A stretch of 64,000 nt of DNA from Candidatus Fraserbacteria bacterium (lineage in GTDB: Bacteria; Bipolaricaulota; Bipolaricaulia; RBG-16-55-9; DRXL01). Shown here piece by piece: positions 47,932-61,188 of this stretch (position 1 is the first letter of the stretch; each line of letters opens with the position of its first letter). The notes under the pieces were generated by a model that was given only the letters and a program-made list of their open reading frames with translations, was not told where the DNA came from and did no database searches. Both the position numbers and the translations under genes were made by a program. The stretch is taken from contig CAMTVK010000003.1 in NCBI GenBank assembly GCA_947085185.1, positions 64,001 to 128,000 on the forward strand, read 5' to 3'.

Positions 47932-49119
47932 ATGGAGAAGGTGCGCAAGTGGTTCACTGTTTCGGCCGTCTTGATGTTGATCTTGGTCTTTATCGTGGCT
48001 TTGGATAACTACAATCAAGAGTGGAAGCGCTATCAGCGGGCCTATCTCACGAAGGTCCTTACAGATAAAACTTTGGCCGAGAAGGGCTCGCTCTCGCTGC
48101 TCGATCGGCTCGTGATAGCGGTCAACGCTGAGATGAATCTTCAGATCAGAAAAGTCGTCACCGAGGTGGGGCGCAGCGCCGATCTGTGTATGACGTGTCA
48201 TGCCAACGTCGGCGTACCGGGGTTTACAGCCGAGCCCCTCAAAGATCTTTTGGAGACCCATAAAGCTATAAAAGTCATAGAGCAGATGCCGTTCGATCAA
48301 GTAGGGTGTACGGCGTGTCATGGGGGGAATGCTCTGGCGCTGCGTGCCGAGCCGGCGCATCACGAGATGCGGTCTCGCTTTGCCCAGATCTTTGAAGAGA
48401 GCGTGGAGCGATTGCGCTCAGAACGGTGGGCAGAGCGCCAGCGAGGGATCGAGCTCATTCGTTGGATGACTGCGAACGACTTTGGCTTTGTCTTCAACGC
48501 TCCCAAGGAGCAGCGCGAGCAAGCTCTCGCGCGCATTCTGGCGTGGTGGCAGCTCCACAAAGACACGTTCTTAGTCGAGGGCTTTGGGGAGCGCAGCTCG
48601 CCGTTCCGCACCGAAAACCCTCAAGCGAAGATAATCGAGCAGCGCACTGACGTCTCTCTCGCGGGCGAGCCGTTGCAGTTTGTCGGCTCGGCCACGTGCG
48701 TTGCGTGCCATGGACGCCCCGAAATCAGCGACGTCTACATCCCCGAATCGAGCAAGCGCCACGTCGAGATCTGGTTCAGGCCGGAGTTCATGACGAGCAA
48801 AAATATCGAAGAATTTAAAGATCATCCGTTTATAGACCAAGAGACGCTGAAGACCATGGACGTGACCTGCGAGGCGTGTCACGGTCCAGGGAGCGAATAC
48901 ACGAAGCTCATGCAGAAGGGGATGGCCCTCGAAGCCGCGGGCCAGAGCGTCGAAGCTGCTGCCCTTATCGGGAAGGCCAAAGAGCTTGCGCGGGCCAACG
49001 CCCGACAGAACATGAGCGAACATGACCCAGCCACCGGATACTCGCGCATTTGGGCGATCTTTGAAAGGCTGATCGAGAAGGCCCTCGCGGCCAAGGGACA
49101 GAACCGCCCCACCGAATAG
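47932..49119 (+). CDS. Membrane-anchored tetraheme cytochrome c
   Basis: N-terminal TM helix; CMTCH, CTACH, CVACH, CEACH. Confidence 0.9.
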   Translation: MEKVRKWFTVSAVLMLILVFIVALDNYNQEWKRYQRAYLTKVLTDKTLAEKGSLSLLDRLVIAVNAEMNLQIRKVVTEVGRSADLCMTCHANVGVPGFTAEPLKDLLETHKAIKVIEQMPFDQVGCTACHGGNALALRAEPAHHEMRSRFAQIFEESVERLRSERWAERQRGIELIRWMTANDFGFVFNAPKEQREQALARILAWWQLHKDTFLVEGFGERSSPFRTENPQAKIIEQRTDVSLAGEPLQFVGSATCVACHGRPEISDVYIPESSKRHVEIWFRPEFMTSKNIEEFKDHPFIDQETLKTMDVTCEACHGPGSEYTKLMQKGMALEAAGQSVEAAALIGKAKELARANARQNMSEHDPATGYSRIWAIFERLIEKALAAKGQNRPTE

Positions 49120-52636: not shown

Positions 52637-53266
52637 CTAGCTGGGGTTCACCCCTGCCTTGGCGGCTTGTTTGAGTCTCTCTAAGACGGGCGTGCCGCCG
52701 GGGTAGCACCCATCGAGCTTGGCTTTGCCGGCGACGACAGCCTCCGCAAAATCCTCGCACGTGGGATACCCGCAGGCCAGACAATCAAAGCCGGGCAAGA
52801 CCGCGCGGAGCTTGGCCGCCGCGGGCGAGAGCGCTGGAGCTTTGGGAGCTTCAGGAGCTTGCTCGACCTTGGGCCAGGACATGACTAACGGCTTAAAGAG
52901 CTCGATCACAAGATCGCTCTTCATCGAGATCTGGCATGATAAGACCCAGCCCTCCTTGCGCAGCTTATCGCTGAGGGGGCCGAGCATCGCCGGGGTGATC
53001 TGCTCTGGAGCCAGCCCTTCTAAGACTTTGACGCGGCAGGTCGCGCACGTGCCCTTGCCGCCGCACTGCGCGAACAGATCATACCCGGCTTTTTTGAGGG
53101 CTTGCATCAGGTTCTGCTCCAGGGGTAAGACCAGCTCATTGCCGTCGTTGACGATCTTGACGCGTGCCTCTCCCTCAGCTGTGAGCACATTCTTTAATAT
53201 CCCTAACACAAGAGCTACCGAGATGGCCATCAGGGCCATCGTCGCTACTGGTACGAGATAGACCAT
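52637..53266 (-). CDS. RnfB substitute: TM helix, NqrF-like [2Fe-2S] domain and RnfB-type FeS domain
   Basis: CGGKGTCATC...LSCQ; LPGFDCLACGYPTC...CYPG. Confidence 0.8.
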   Translation of the reverse strand: MVYLVPVATMALMAISVALVLGILKNVLTAEGEARVKIVNDGNELVLPLEQNLMQALKKAGYDLFAQCGGKGTCATCRVKVLEGLAPEQITPAMLGPLSDKLRKEGWVLSCQISMKSDLVIELFKPLVMSWPKVEQAPEAPKAPALSPAAAKLRAVLPGFDCLACGYPTCEDFAEAVVAGKAKLDGCYPGGTPVLERLKQAAKAGVNPS

Positions 53267-55353: not shown

Positions 55354-56469
55354 TCACCTCTTTTGGAGAGCTGGCGCCGAGAAGCTCTTGGGGATCGTGA
55401 ATCTGTCAATCAACGGCGTGAACATATTGCCAATTAAAATAGCGAACGTCACCCACTCGGCATAGCCGGTCAGCCCACGCCCCAGTACCGTCAACACTCC
55501 CAACATTATACCGAAGATCCATCGTCCGCGGACGGTCATAGGGCTCGTGACAGGATCGGTCGCATTGAGAAATGCCGCAAAGAGCAAGCCCCCACTGAGC
55601 ACGGCGTAGATCCCATCAGGGAATCTCACAGGATTGATAAAGCTGAGAAACTGCGAAGTCAGCCCAGCAGTAACGATCATAACTATTGAGACGCGCCAGT
55701 CAATGATCCGTGCATATAAGAGATAGAGTCCGCCTAGGAGAACGAGCAGGGCCGAAGTCGCTCCCAGGACATCCGCCCGACCAAAGCCCGTCACGAGCGT
55801 AAAGAGCTCGGGATTGGCAATGTCTGGGGAGTTGAACGCCCCCAAGGGGGTCGCCTTGGCGATGGCGTCTATGCCCTTTACTGATTCGGGAGACCAATGC
55901 ACAAAACCTCCAAGTCCGTCCGTCAACGGGTTGAAGGGCATGTACCAGCGCGTTGTCATAGCCGACGGGAACGCTAAGAGTAAAAACGCCCGCCCGCTGA
56001 TCGCCGGGTTGAAGATATTATATCCCGACCCGCCGAAGAGTTCTTTGACCCCAATGGCGAAGAAGATCCCCATCGCGACCATCCACAGGGGCAGCGTTGG
56101 GGGCAGCGAGAGCGCATAGAGAATGCATGTCACCAGCAGACCCTCGGTGATCTCGTGGCGCCGGACTGCACAGAAAGTAAACTCGACAGCCATCCCGACA
56201 AGATAAGTCACTACGATGATCGCCAGGGCACGCCATCCGTAAAAGTAGATGCTCGCCAGGGCCAGAGGGATGCAGACGAGTATAGGAGAGCCCATGTAGC
56301 GTTGCATTCCCAAGGCGTCCCGAATATAGGGGGCTTGGCGAGCTGGCTTATCGCTGCCGCCGAAGATCGAATCTTTGAGACCCTCCCATAGGATAGCCAA
56401 GCCCTCGGCACGGCGGGCGTGGAGGTCGCGATGCACCCTCTCGAAGAAATTATAGATCTTGTCTTTCAT
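55354..56469 (-). CDS. rnfD: Rnf complex subunit D
   Basis: KELFGGSGYNIFNPA, ATPL, ATDPVTSP, ILIGNMFTPLID. Confidence 0.9.
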   Translation of the reverse strand: MKDKIYNFFERVHRDLHARRAEGLAILWEGLKDSIFGGSDKPARQAPYIRDALGMQRYMGSPILVCIPLALASIYFYGWRALAIIVVTYLVGMAVEFTFCAVRRHEITEGLLVTCILYALSLPPTLPLWMVAMGIFFAIGVKELFGGSGYNIFNPAISGRAFLLLAFPSAMTTRWYMPFNPLTDGLGGFVHWSPESVKGIDAIAKATPLGAFNSPDIANPELFTLVTGFGRADVLGATSALLVLLGGLYLLYARIIDWRVSIVMIVTAGLTSQFLSFINPVRFPDGIYAVLSGGLLFAAFLNATDPVTSPMTVRGRWIFGIMLGVLTVLGRGLTGYAEWVTFAILIGNMFTPLIDRFTIPKSFSAPALQKR

Positions 56470-57890
56470 GATGCCTCCGTGAGAACCTTGCGTTTGCCTT
56501 CGCGAATCTGTTCTAAGAGCGGGATCTTGCTGGGGCAGACATAGGCACACAACCCGCACTCAATGCACGCAAAGAGATCAATGCTTTGCGCTTCGCTCAC
56601 CATACCGTGGGCAGAGTATTCCCCAAGCAGCGCCGGCACTAAATTCTGCGGGCAGACGTCCACGCAATAACCGCACTTGACGCAGGGCCTGGGGTTTCCG
56701 TTCAAGCTGGTCGTGGCGCGCTTGTACTTGACCCACGGCAGACTCAGATACACCCCCGTGAACGAGTCGCGATCGAAGCCCGGCCCAACGACGGGAAAGA
56801 GCTCATGCTCTGGTTCTTTGAGGGCGATCACAGCGGGGATCTCTCTGGTGATGGGGCTATCGAGATCCCCCTGGGCTTGTCCACGCATGACGCTTCCCGC
56901 GATGATGCGCCCGTTGCCCTTCAAGTTCTTCTCTAAAAGATTCCCGATGGGGGTGCCTACCCGAACCCGATAGTTCCCAGGCTCTTTTACAGCTGAGCCC
57001 GCTACGGAGACGACGCGCTCGACGAAGGGCTTGCCCTCTACGACCGCTTCATAAGCTGCCACACACTGCTGGACATCACACACGACGCACCCGACGTCAG
57101 TGGCGTAGCCTCGCTGCGGGAGCAGGAGCCCCAAGAGCGTGCGCACAAGCACCGCGTCGTCGCCCTGAGGGTATTTGGGACGCAATTGATGGATCGTGCA
57201 CCAGTCATAGTATTCGAGGCGCTCGATGAGCTCTTCGTAGATTCTCGGCTTGTTATATCCCAAGCCAATGTGCACTTGGACGTTCCCGAGCGCTTGGCGC
57301 AGGATCTTGATGCCGTTGACAAATTTGTCGAACTCTTCGTAGAGCAACTGATCGGGTGCTTCGCAGAACGGCTCGGTCTCAACGGCGTTGATTAGTAAAT
57401 AGCGAATCTTCTCTGGAGTGGCTGGGGAGGAGTGATAGATCGTGGGGAAGCCCGCTTGGCCTCCCGAAGTGACCCCGGCTTCGTAGAGGATTTTTCCCAG
57501 TTCTTCTGGGGGCAGTTTTTCGTAGTTGGCCGGGCGATCAAGCAAGAGCCAATCGTCTTTGCCGTCGGACTCGATCTCGACGCAGAGGGCCTCGCCACCT
57601 AACGGATGCGGGCGCTTCTCTATCTTCACGACCCTTCCGGAGATGCTTGCGTGGACAGGGGTCGAGGGTCTGTTGGGGTCGGGCTCGTTGCGCCCGATGA
57701 CCTGCCCCGTCTTGACGCGGTCGCCCTCTTTGACAGTCGGCACGACTTCGGCAGAAAAGCCCTGACGCAAGGGAATCAGAACTCTCGGGGGCAGCGGCGC
57801 GGATGCGAGCCGCTTGCCGCGCGGCGTCCCCTCAAAGAGCCCAAAGTAATGGCCACCCTTGAACGTCTTGAGCGCTCCTAAGACAGCCAT
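56466..57890 (-). CDS. rnfC: Rnf complex subunit C
   Basis: PVHASISG, AGFPT, YPQG, two CxxCxxCxxxCP motifs. Confidence 0.9.
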   Translation of the reverse strand: MAVLGALKTFKGGHYFGLFEGTPRGKRLASAPLPPRVLIPLRQGFSAEVVPTVKEGDRVKTGQVIGRNEPDPNRPSTPVHASISGRVVKIEKRPHPLGGEALCVEIESDGKDDWLLLDRPANYEKLPPEELGKILYEAGVTSGGQAGFPTIYHSSPATPEKIRYLLINAVETEPFCEAPDQLLYEEFDKFVNGIKILRQALGNVQVHIGLGYNKPRIYEELIERLEYYDWCTIHQLRPKYPQGDDAVLVRTLLGLLLPQRGYATDVGCVVCDVQQCVAAYEAVVEGKPFVERVVSVAGSAVKEPGNYRVRVGTPIGNLLEKNLKGNGRIIAGSVMRGQAQGDLDSPITREIPAVIALKEPEHELFPVVGPGFDRDSFTGVYLSLPWVKYKRATTSLNGNPRPCVKCGYCVDVCPQNLVPALLGEYSAHGMVSEAQSIDLFACIECGLCAYVCPSKIPLLEQIREGKRKVLTEAS

Positions 57891-59197: not shown

Positions 59198-59371
59198 TCA
59201 GGAACCTGCTCCTTCGTTTATGGGGTGATTATATTACAGCCCCTTTGCGCTGTCAAACTTCTCTGATCTTCTACTCTATTGAGGGGATCTTTTGCCATGA
59301 TCTGCGTCATCCCTGAGGATGACGTCGGTCATGTGATGGCCCTCGCTCTTTTTGTTATGATTATTATATCA

Positions 59372-59962
59372 ATGTTTACTGGGATTGTCACGGACACCGG
59401 CGAGGTGCTCACGGCGCACGCGACGCGGCTTGTCATCGCTACCCCTAAGCTCTTTGGAGCATTAGAAATCGGGCGGAGCGTCGCGGTCAATGGAGCGTGC
59501 CTGACGGTCATCGAGCTCACTCCTGCCGCGGAGAGCTTCGCGGCAGAGCTGAGCCCAGAGACCATCCGGCGCACGAACTTGGGAGCCCTGCGCCGCGGCG
59601 ATCTCGTCAATTTGGAGCTGCCCTTACGATTTTCTGATCGTCTCGATGGGCACTTCGTGCTGGGGCACGTGGACACCGTTGGGGAGGTCGTCTCGATCTC
59701 TCGCACAGAGAAGGGCGCGGTCTTCCGGTTTCGCGTCGATAAGAGCTACTCACACTATCTGGTCGAGAAGGGCTCGATTGCCATAGATGGGATCAGCTTG
59801 ACGATCTTCAATATCTCTGATGGGGAGTTTGACGTGGCGATCATCCCTCATACGCTCGAGCACACGAACTTACGGGTGCGTTGCCCTGGGGATAGAGTGA
59901 ATGTCGAGTTCGACATTTTGGGAAAGTATATAGAAAGACTCTGCAAGGGAGGCTGCTTGTGA
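59372..59962 (+). CDS. ribE: Riboflavin synthase
   Basis: [37 protein letters not shown]. Confidence 0.95.
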
Positions 59963-61188
59963 TGGGGTTTGCCAAGATCAAAGAGGCGCTGGAAGCGCTC
60001 AAGCGTGGTGAGATGATCGTCGTCGTAGACGACGAAGACCGCGAGAACGAAGGCGACGTCGTATTGGCAGCCCAGTTTGTCACCCCGGAGAAGATCAATT
60101 TTATGGCGAAGGAGGCCCGGGGGATCATCTGTGTGCCCATGACGGGGGAGCGGCTCGATGAGCTTGGGATCAAGCTCATGGTGCAGACGGATTCTGGGGG
60201 AAAGGGATGCGCGTTCACGGTCTCAGTAGACGCTCGCGAGGGGATCAGCACCGGGACGTCTGCGTACGATCGCGCCCATACTATTAGAACGCTGATCGCT
60301 CCCAAGACCAAGCCTTCAGATTTAGTCCAGCCGGGGCATGTCTTTCCGTTGCGTGCTCGGCCCGGCGGCGTCTTGCAGCGGGCTGGCCACACCGAAGCCA
60401 GCGTCGATCTCTGTAAATTAGCGGGGCTCTACCCTGCTGCGGTCATCTGCGAGGTGATGAACGAGGACGGCACGATGGCCCGGCTGCCCCAGCTGGAAAG
60501 ATTCGCACAGAAGCATAATTTGCTCATTATAAGCATTGCCGATCTCATTCGCTATCGCTACGAACGCGAGCGCTTGGTCGAGAAGATCGCCTGGGCCGAT
60601 CTTCCTACGGAGTTTGGGGAGTTTACGATCCATGCCTATCGCAGTCTCGTTGATGGAAAGGAGCACATCGCGCTGGTCAAGGGCGAGGTCACCGGAAGAG
60701 AGAACGTCTTAGTGCGGGTGCACTCAGAATGTCTGACAGGAGATGTCTTTGGCTCGCTCAAGTGCGACTGTGGGGAGCAGCTCCGGCAAGCCCTGCGCCA
60801 GATCGCCCATGAGGGTATGGGGGTCTTGCTCTATTTACGCCAAGAGGGACGCGGCATCGGCCTAGGAAACAAGATCAAAGCGTATCATCTCCAAGATAGA
60901 GGGCTGGACACGGTGGAGGCGAACCGGCAGCTCGGCTTTAAAGAAGATCTCCGCGAGTACGGCATCGGGGTACAGATTCTGAAAGATTTGGGGCTGAGCA
61001 CCATTCGAATTCTCACCAATAACCCCAAGAAGCTCGTGGGCATCGAGGCCTACGGCATCAAGATCGTGGAGCAACTGCCCCTTTTAGTCGCGCCCAACCC
61101 CCATAATTATAACTATCTGAGGACGAAGAAAGAGAAACTAGGCCACCAGCTCGATGCGATCTTCGCGAACTTCAGCAATGAGCCTTAA
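59959..61188 (+). CDS. ribBA: DHBP synthase / GTP cyclohydrolase II
   Basis: [39 protein letters not shown]. Confidence 0.97.

Follow-up and report, generated by a model that had tools for sequence, protein, structure and literature searches.

A 64,000-nucleotide stretch of a Candidatus Fraserbacteria genome (phylum Bipolaricaulota; contig CAMTVK010000003.1, positions 64,001 to 128,000; hereafter the window) carries an Rnf operon whose rnfB position is occupied by the gene for a 209-residue chimeric NqrF/RnfB-like subunit, which we call X. This protein joins an NqrF-like transmembrane helix and [2Fe-2S] ferredoxin (Fer2) domain to a single RnfB-type [4Fe-4S] domain, and has lost, or never had, both the polyferredoxin and the NADH/FAD module. 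In the Rnf complex of Acetobacterium woodii, the single-cluster domain B8 (RnfB residues 30-100), which follows the RnfB helix and is described as highly mobile, slots in between RnfA and RnfE, where it reduces AE1, the intramembrane [2Fe-2S] cluster that these two subunits hold, and clusters B1-B7 of RnfB are described as only gathering electrons from ferredoxin (PMC11889175). In the account of Nqr, the tethered Fer2 domain of NqrF does the job of B8 (PMC12174285). X unites only these two docking domain types, NqrF Fer2 and RnfB B8. With moderate confidence, we propose that it stands where RnfB or NqrF would stand in an Rnf complex peculiar to this lineage, and that its two clusters form an electron relay on the cytoplasmic side, wired to subunit IV of a cytochrome b complex, the product of the next gene.

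Domain architecture and distribution of X

A preliminary description, made from the letters of the sequence, had located the gene correctly (Table 1) without its strand; it lies on the minus strand, and the plus-strand frame at the same coordinates is full of stops. X starts 27 nt 3' of the rnfA stop, and its own stop lies 1 nt ahead of the start of the next gene. The order of parts given in that description, a transmembrane helix, an NqrF-like [2Fe-2S] domain and the RnfB FeS domain last, is borne out by Pfam, NCBIfam and Protein Data Bank (PDB) matches and by an AlphaFold2 model. Both Pfam domains score over their cut-offs, Fer2 (PF00111; E 2.1e-11; 44.1 bits, cut-off 21) spanning residues 43-115 and FeS (PF04060; E 2.4e-13; 50 bits, cut-off 23) spanning residues 157-189, and the motif LPGFDCLACGYPTC...C is present. 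No Fer4-type, FAD- or NAD-binding Pfam family was found in X at E <= 0.01, in keeping with the earlier statement that it has neither polyferredoxin clusters nor a FAD/NADH domain, and the C-terminus reaches only 20 residues past the FeS domain.

Each half of X aligns with a different parent family. The NCBIfam nqrF model (TIGR01941) places X 9-123 on its positions 5-120 of 405 (63.2 bits, under the cut-off of 295), and the rnfB model (TIGR01944) places X 147-201 on its positions 34-87 of 190 (42.7 bits, under the cut-off of 68.7). The top PDB match by sequence is Vibrio cholerae NqrF (8a1t_F, E 3.3e-11), X 8-126 aligning with NqrF 9-126 at about 30% identity with helix and Fer2 both in register; RnfB chains 7zc6_B, 8ahx_B and 9eri_B match only X 148-199 (E 3e-5 to 2.4e-4). 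All eight cysteines (C68, C74, C77, C111, C162, C165, C170 and C187) are invariant in alignments of 18 and of 51 relatives, and X is conserved in 59 database relatives. With two curated domain matches over cut-off and conserved relatives, the architecture is far above chance.

The AlphaFold2 model, built from 51 relatives (predicted local distance difference test (pLDDT) 83.5), comprises a helix at residues 4-31, a Fer2 fold at 33-130, a disordered segment at 135-143 (pLDDT < 50) and a helical FeS domain at 148-205. Foldseek gave NqrF chains as the best matches to this model (E 9.2e-8 over 130 columns), and a VIA fold search aligned X 1-131 with NqrF 2-130 (Z 13.3-13.4, root-mean-square deviation (rmsd) 5.2-5.4, 127-128 residues); the Fer2 domain of RACo, which matches the Fer2 part of X alone, came within 1 Z of NqrF. 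The match lists of the fold searches were taken up by the Fer2 part (X 27-130 spanned), and residues 148-205 are assigned by sequence. The linker between the two domains varies in length among the relatives of both alignments and, given its low model confidence, is probably a flexible tether.

Compared with structurally known subunits, X resembles RnfB (A. woodii 9ERI_B, Clostridium tetanomorphum 7ZC6_B, Azotobacter vinelandii 8AHX_B) in its N-terminal helix, its one PF04060/B8 domain with CxxCxxxxC...C ligands, the position of its gene beside rnfA and its being the only such subunit available, but differs in having no B1-B7 polyferredoxin, in the Fer2 domain inserted between helix and B8, and in scoring under the TIGR01944 cut-off. 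It resembles V. cholerae NqrF (8A1T_F, 7XK3_F) in the register of helix and Fer2 and in the C-x5-C-x2-C...C spacing, NqrF being its top match by sequence and by fold, but has an RnfB-type [4Fe-4S] domain in place of the FAD/NADH domains. Their partners differ as well: those of X are Rnf-type, including an RnfC that keeps its NADH, FMN and FeS sites, whereas NqrF works with NqrA-E, in which NqrA has no cofactors.

Table 1. Coordinates in the window of the X gene, the parts of its product, the other operon genes and a syntenic cytochrome gene
Feature	Coordinates	Strand	Details
X, 209-aa chimeric NqrF/RnfB-like subunit in the rnfB slot	52637..53266	(-)	ATG start
X residues 4-31, N-terminal transmembrane helix in register with the NqrF helix	53174..53257	(-)	model and sequence alignment
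X residues 33-130, plant/NqrF-type [2Fe-2S] ferredoxin domain	52877..53170	(-)	ligands C68, C74, C77, C111
X residues 131-147, Pro/Ala-rich linker	52826..52876	(-)	low model confidence
X residues 148-205, RnfB 'B8'-type [4Fe-4S] domain (PF04060)	52652..52825	(-)	ligands C162, C165, C170, C187
Rieske [2Fe-2S] subunit, 183 aa	58646..59197	(-)	Pfam Rieske 36.3 bits
Cytochrome b6-type subunit, 252 aa	57891..58649	(-)	Pfam Cytochrome_B 152.3 bits
rnfC, 474 aa	56466..57890	(-)	NADH/FMN (Complex1_51K) domain; two CxxCxxCxxxCP motifs (2x[4Fe-4S])
rnfD	55354..56472	(-)	flavinylation Thr context ...AKATPLG kept
rnfG, 232 aa	54649..55347	(-)	FMN_bind domain; motif ...DAITGATYTS
rnfE, 229 aa	53894..54583	(-)	both conserved Cys present
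rnfA, 198 aa	53294..53890	(-)	C25 and C113 at AE1 cluster ligand positions
Fer2::subunit IV fusion, 350 aa	51583..52635	(-)	N-terminal NqrF-like Fer2, helical domain, three PetD/ExtQ-type transmembrane helices
Membrane-anchored tetrahaem cytochrome c, candidate Rieske acceptor (weak link)	47932..49119	(+)	synteny

The source genome (1.72 Mb, 96.8% complete) offers no substitute for X. A PF04060 search of this genome returned three matches only, X, the corrinoid protein AcsC and a 589-residue ResB-like protein, and with TIGR01944 nothing scored over cut-off, the other matches being ferredoxin-like stretches inside large enzymes; the possibility left by the preliminary description, that a canonical rnfB elsewhere serves the complex, thus found no support here, nor in the 35 genomes surveyed from its order (0/35). 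Two rows of the order survey that exceed the rnfB cut-off are X genes with tandemly duplicated FeS domains. A second Rnf or Nqr as supplier of the B/F subunit was rejected, as the genome has a single RnfA/E pair. The ResB-like cytochrome c biogenesis protein (contig 2, L003 1258-3027) combines an N-terminal double zinc-ribbon with its PF04060 domain.

That X is an Fe-S-based sensor or assembly factor and carries no electrons is highly improbable: small Fe-S proteins can play such parts, and genes for an Rrf2 regulator and for Mrp/SufT-like Fe-S assembly proteins lie near the operon, yet nothing specific speaks for it, and X sits in the rnfB slot with no alternative B/F subunit found, has a membrane anchor in register with that of NqrF, and consists of two domains that are both homologous to the AE1-docking domains of NqrF and RnfB.

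The architecture is rare. Searched over 1.84 billion representatives, a profile of 18 X relatives matched 8298 proteins at E <= 0.001 and 10 at E <= 1e-30; eight of these 10 are clusters that span both X domains, the other two being helix-Fer2 only, and matches weaker than E 1e-30 cover one domain, either NqrF N-termini or FeS-domain proteins. With eight two-domain clusters in a search of this size, X is not a common component of ordinary Rnf operons, which the preliminary description had named as the other way in which its reading might fail. Among 151 Bipolaricaulota genomes, 30 encode the two-domain protein, distributed by family as 14/16 in f1, 9/9 in f2, 3/4 in f3, 1/1 in f4, 2/3 in f5 and 1/1 in f11; it was not found in families f6-f10 of this survey, of which f8 has a canonical rnfDGEAB cluster (L083) and a separate Nqr-like cluster (L082). 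One apparent two-domain match (L041) is a 1.6-kb contig, and another (L038) was rejected as a 644-residue frame of AcsV-type length with no rnf genes near.

The operon and its Fer2-bearing subunit IV

Nine genes on one strand, with short gaps or overlaps, make up the operon in the order Rieske-cyt b6-rnfCDGEA-X-(Fer2::subunit IV). RnfC (323.4 bits, cut-off 245.95), RnfD (253.8, cut-off 207.05) and RnfE (205.4 on NF009070, cut-off 184) score over the cut-offs of their Rnf models, and RnfA (217 against 229.3) and RnfG (89 against 102) fall slightly under theirs. The likely true start of rnfD, revised from the length of its homologues, gives a protein of 372 residues. To judge from its motifs, the Rnf core looks functional: the RnfC sites, the AE1 cysteines (ligand positions as described for A. 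woodii RnfA and RnfE, PMC11889175) and the RnfG and RnfD flavinylation motifs are all present, and the genome encodes ApbE.

The last gene of the operon encodes a second protein with an NqrF-like ferredoxin domain, on its cytoplasmic N-terminus. Its Fer2 domain matches the nqrF NCBIfam model best, and the ligands C37, C43, C46 and C78 are invariant in 15 sequences. In a search of its model against 48,161 structural representatives, informative for residues 1-96 only, the Fer2 domain of NqrF (7xk3_F) came first (Z 13.1, rmsd 2.6, 94 residues; the next match scored 11.5); the helical domain follows at about residues 103-193. The C-terminal part is weakly matched, by PF00032 (18.3 bits, cut-off 20.7), ExtQ (45.8 bits) and cytb6_f_IV (19.5 bits), the last two also under cut-off. 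Residues 244-251 read NPEKAPWY, invariantly, with a three-residue insertion within a PEWY-like motif, at what is presumably the place of the quinol-site PEWY motif of b6f and bc1 complexes. The cytochrome b6-type subunit contains no cysteine at all, so that a covalently attached haem ci, a feature of the b6f/Firmicutes kind, is impossible in it.

We compared the nine proteins by tblastn with 20 loci, 18 of them from Bipolaricaulota. Eight loci have the full form, nine genes in the same order, and six more, among them L019, which has no cytochrome b genes, are cut by contig ends. The rnf genes interrupt the three cytochrome b complex genes in a fixed order, and RnfA, RnfE and RnfG are 83-97% identical across the family. 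The gene for Fer2::subunit IV lies directly 3' of X in 15 of the 18 Bipolaricaulota loci, the exceptions being L019, L030 and L027, in which the contig ends inside X. A second Fer2 frame, mostly of 351-397 residues, directly follows X in at least 26 of the 30 X-bearing genomes and is Fer2-subunit IV wherever checked; of the other four, G034 has none, and the rows of G018, G035 and G134 fall outside the matches listed.

This linkage outlives the ion pump. In a reduced form of the operon (L028, L031), Rieske-cytochrome b6-rnfC-rnfD-X'-Fer2::subunit IV, rnfG, rnfE and rnfA are missing. The N-terminus of X' carries a remnant of the RnfA C-terminus, with 45% identity over RnfA 123-171 in L028, and P0050 residues 73-116 likewise align with RnfA 153-193 (E 5e-5), so the reduced form descends from the full one. 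RnfA/E is present in 20 of the 35 order genomes and absent from all nine of f2, three of the four of f3, the single f4 genome and G049, which makes 14 X-bearing genomes without the RnfA/E pumping core. The linkage of X to subunit IV persists where rnfG/E/A has been deleted, these 14 genomes included, and it is this survival that chiefly argues that X and the subunit IV Fer2 domain work together. A complex prediction of X 30-209 with Fer2-subunit IV 1-205 scored 0.00; it gave no answer and is evidence neither way. Common to every form linked to cytochrome b are Rieske, cytochrome b, RnfC, RnfD, X and Fer2-subunit IV.

Further variants occur. In the reduced operons (L028 7356-8408; L031 7655-8719) the RnfD flavinylation context ...ATPL reads ...LTPL or ...QTPL, which hints that the RnfD flavin may be lost along with RnfG. 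X has two FeS domains in L029 and in two f5 genomes, and L030 has rnfC-rnfD-rnfG followed by a protein with helix and Fer2 only, without cytochrome b genes. In P0057 and P0180 a Fer2 plus PF04060 module with no membrane helix is fused to a NuoC (Complex1_30kDa) domain, the two-cluster relay module being attached in this case to a complex-I-like module. Locus L019 (G034:C4), from a 90% complete genome of the same genus, has rnfCDGEA-X between riboflavin genes and a zinc-ribbon gene; this genome has lost the operon's cytochrome b genes at both ends and the second cytochrome b complex too.

Riboflavin genes adjoin the operon in the window as well (ribE and ribBA, 59279-61188, plus strand), as they do in L014-L020 and L025/L026 and, on the opposite side, in L031; this neighbourhood is conserved beside a complex that needs riboflavin and three FMN.

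A possible electron path and its rivals

Under the proposed mechanism, one cluster domain of X would dock at RnfA/E. We favour the Fer2 domain, since its attachment to the helix is just that seen in NqrF. The B8-like domain would swing out on its Pro/Ala tether of about 17 residues and meet the cytoplasmic Fer2 domain that subunit IV carries on the n-side of the b haems; in G034 a different donor would take the place of subunit IV. Such a relay would connect NAD(H) at RnfC with the menaquinone pool and with the cytochrome b haems on their n-side, electrons passing along the ion-translocating RnfAE-G-D path; where rnfG/E/A is missing, the relay presumably joins RnfC and subunit IV directly, by transfer between RnfC and X. 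Electrons might flow either way, from quinol to NAD+ or from NADH to quinone. A main path from the Rieske protein to the periplasmic flavins of RnfG and RnfD was rejected as improbable on general redox potentials. The genome is compatible with such a role. MqnA/D and NuoH were not found in the source genome search, and the presence of MenA (over cut-off) together with the missing NuoH indicates that a quinone pool exists with no complex I competing; the lack of a NuoH match also leaves room for an NADH:menaquinone role. The genome further encodes haem O synthase, and contig 9 holds another Rieske/cytochrome b cluster, of conventional type, between multihaem cytochromes c.

Several observations weigh against a relay between subunit IV and the Rnf core. 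The assignment of the docking domain of X is conjectural. In known Rnf and Nqr complexes, electron entry at the B/F slot drives ion export; for NAD+ reduction coupled to pumping, electrons from the b haems should be too oxidising, and the reverse flow, from NADH to quinone, would waste the gradient, so the energetics of known Rnf/Nqr coupling would fit neither direction cleanly. Docking at AE1 cannot be the sole conserved job of X, because 14 genomes keep X without RnfA/E. The G034 locus lacks Rieske, cytochrome b6 and subunit IV, and no Fer2-subunit IV or cytochrome b was found anywhere in that genome, in which MenA is present; X must therefore have another partner there. The partnership of X with subunit IV is partly supported, the support being that of gene linkage. 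Finally, no c1- or f-type cytochrome acceptor for the Rieske protein is encoded among the nine operon genes. A candidate for this part, which a quinol-oxidising or bifurcating mode would need, is the tetrahaem cytochrome c of Table 1, whose gene lies 2.5 kb from the operon on the opposite strand and is syntenic with it across the genus; in the distant locus L029, a tetrahaem cytochrome c gene (1316-2461, 39% identity) is directly upstream of and divergent from the Rieske gene.

G034 also bears on the suggestion of the preliminary description that X is an adapter, possibly for the FeS domain of subunit IV. Gene linkage in 15 of 18 loci speaks for the connection; that X is an adapter and nothing else does not hold, because G034 keeps rnfCDGEA-X without subunit IV or cytochrome b. 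The same genome also speaks for X as a minimal RnfB in an ordinary ferredoxin:NAD+ pump, taking electrons from a soluble ferredoxin, with the cytochrome b genes merely co-regulated and not wired to it. The Wood-Ljungdahl machinery of the source genome (adjacent AcsB and AcsC) likewise calls for ferredoxin:NAD+ coupling, and papers on these bacteria read the cluster as Rnf (PMC3267732, PMC9586279, in the portions available). We nevertheless think this unlikely, since X lacks any ferredoxin-collecting [4Fe-4S] domain, a fixed gene order sets the rnf genes between those of the cytochrome b complex, subunit IV has gained a cytoplasmic [2Fe-2S] domain of its own, and X and Fer2-subunit IV remain adjacent even after deletion of rnfG/E/A, for which co-regulation alone is insufficient.

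The reduced operons point the other way, to X as a purely cytoplasmic bridge from the [4Fe-4S] clusters of RnfC to the Fer2 domain of subunit IV in an NAD(H)-linked Rieske/cytochrome b complex, RnfAE-G being separate or vestigial. In its favour, RnfC, RnfD, X and Fer2-subunit IV are retained with Rieske and cytochrome b in every cytochrome-b-linked form, reduced forms are frequent (the 14 X-bearing order genomes without RnfA/E), and the low-confidence tether of roughly 17 residues could give the B8-like domain a long reach. We judge this account improbable too. In A. woodii the nearest clusters of RnfB and RnfC are described as lying more than 30 Å apart, with no direct transfer expected (PMC11889175); X keeps exactly the two domain types that dock at AE1 in Rnf and Nqr; and RnfA, RnfE and RnfG of the window are intact with all ligands and, being 83-97% identical, are therefore under selection. 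A relay that serves both the Rnf core and subunit IV is the reading we consider more probable.

Part of this arrangement is already in the literature without having been understood, and the chimeric B subunit is a new variant. Takami et al. (2012) noted the cluster OP4C155-0162 of Candidatus Acetothermum autotrophicum, naming its last rnf gene rnfB and treating the complex as a ferredoxin:NAD+ pump, and the available portion of that account mentions neither a chimeric architecture nor a Fer2-fused subunit IV (PMC3267732); Colman et al. (2022) present the Rnf of Acetothermia as an acetogenic pump (PMC9586279). A full-text literature search, covering sources other than subscription journals and supplements, found no description of a chimeric B subunit or of a Fer2-fused subunit IV.

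The nearest parallel in idea is found in anammox bacteria, whose Rieske/cytochrome b complexes are encoded with an NAD(P)H-binding iron-sulfur flavoprotein and have been proposed to link quinol oxidation to NAD(P)+ reduction; there, unlike in the X operon, the NAD(P) module is not Rnf-derived, extra haem c subunits are present, and no RnfB/NqrF-like relay is known. Because the complex lacks an arm to collect electrons from ferredoxin and is linked genetically to a module that oxidises quinol, 'Rnf' in metabolic models of Bipolaricaulota and Acetothermia may be misread as the ordinary ferredoxin:NAD+ pump of acetogenesis. Should the two modules form one machine, the quinone pool would be linked to NAD(H) in a new way, and the complex would be an unstudied respiratory machine that couples the menaquinone pool to NAD(H) via an ion-translocating Rnf core and three tethered Fe-S domains.

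Place of the X-type complex between Rnf and Nqr

Each of the five core subunits scores better with the Rnf model than with the Nqr one, by narrow margins for RnfA (217 against 200) and RnfD (254 against 229). Outside the phylum, the closest RnfD relatives among the matches listed come from Dethiobacter, Selenihalanaerobacter, Brocadiia and a proteobacterial metagenome-assembled genome (MAG); they are named RnfD at the source, score at least as high on the NqrB model as on the RnfD model, and yet stay under NqrB cut-offs. In an RnfD/NqrB tree of 36 rows (26 of 120 listed matches and 10 rows derived from loci), canonical RnfD (three rows) is split off by a branch with 100/100 support, and a 99/97 branch leads to 21 rows that comprise two bona fide NqrB, the subunit of the f8 NqrF-bearing cluster and NqrB-leaning proteins. 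The X-type RnfDs branch off between canonical RnfD and the NqrB clade, in a grade that the tree leaves unresolved.

The comparison of RnfA/E with NqrD/E that the preliminary description had proposed points the same way. This tree has 37 rows, with references labelled by NCBIfam and the two paralogue halves rooting each other; L101 and L120 (truncated) and L105 and L115 (no family match at 1e-40) were left out. The sister group of X-type RnfA consists of six true NqrE and the f8 NqrF-cluster subunit (99/97), with canonical RnfA below; X-type RnfE joins the f8 subunit (85/85), and the two form a polytomy with NqrD. The tree references come from genomes reachable through X-related loci, with canonical Rnf thinly sampled; as far as this sampling allows, no Rnf-type core lies closer to the NqrF-bearing lineage than the X-type one. 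The helix-Fer2 module looks like a trait shared by the X-type and NqrF-bearing groups.

These positions give partial backing to the further suggestion of the preliminary description, that X is an Rnf/Nqr evolutionary intermediate: RnfA, RnfE and RnfD do fall near Nqr. X could be such an intermediate, an RnfB with a Fer2 domain inserted and the polyferredoxin lost, or it could be a later chimera, an NqrF whose FNR part was replaced by B8. A tree of Fer2 domains (65 rows, 97 columns) does not decide between a surviving intermediate and a later chimera; it gathers the X Fer2 domains in one clade (SH-aLRT 97) and those of subunit IV in another (97), with their places among NqrF-like domains unresolved.

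Published work derives Nqr from a duplicated rnf set that lost rnfB and recruited a monooxygenase reductase, which acquired the RnfB helix, and describes NqrF and RnfB as subunits that 'have no homologous counterpart' in the other complex (PMC4014512). A 2025 review calls RnfB 'structurally not related to NqrF', and the words hybrid, Rieske and Bipolaricaulota are absent from it (PMC12174285). With the anchor and Fer2 domain of NqrF, the AE1-docking domain of RnfB and a lineage beside Nqr, X provides a concrete object for testing the origin of Nqr from Rnf. We advance only tentatively the fuller reading that X-type complexes are surviving relatives of the Rnf-to-Nqr transition and also form one particle with the Rieske/cytochrome b module. 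In that transition, the helix-[2Fe-2S] module would have entered the B slot while the B8 plug and a cofactor-bearing RnfC remained, the gain of an FNR-like NADH module and the decay of RnfC to NqrA both following only afterwards.

The Nqr-like cluster of family f8 (L082, G098:C139, 759-7134, minus strand) offers a close comparison. It shares with the X operon the gene order C/A-D/B-G/C-E/D-A/E followed by a helix-Fer2 subunit, and its subunits are the nearest relatives of the window RnfA, RnfE and RnfD in the trees; unlike the X operon, it has no Rieske or cytochrome b genes, and its last subunit is a true NqrF, complete with FAD/NAD module (307.6 bits, cut-off 295). Its other subunits include NqrB- and NqrE-leaning proteins, menA follows, and a match to RnfC, 2x[4Fe-4S] region included, remains in its A/C subunit (168 bits). 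From these features, L082 may be a second Rnf/Nqr intermediate. Loci L118, L119 and L124, from a proteobacterial and a Latescibacterota MAG, encode a third RnfA/E-like pair that falls under both Rnf and Nqr cut-offs and, in the tree of RnfA/E with NqrD/E, forms a 100/100 clade of its own.

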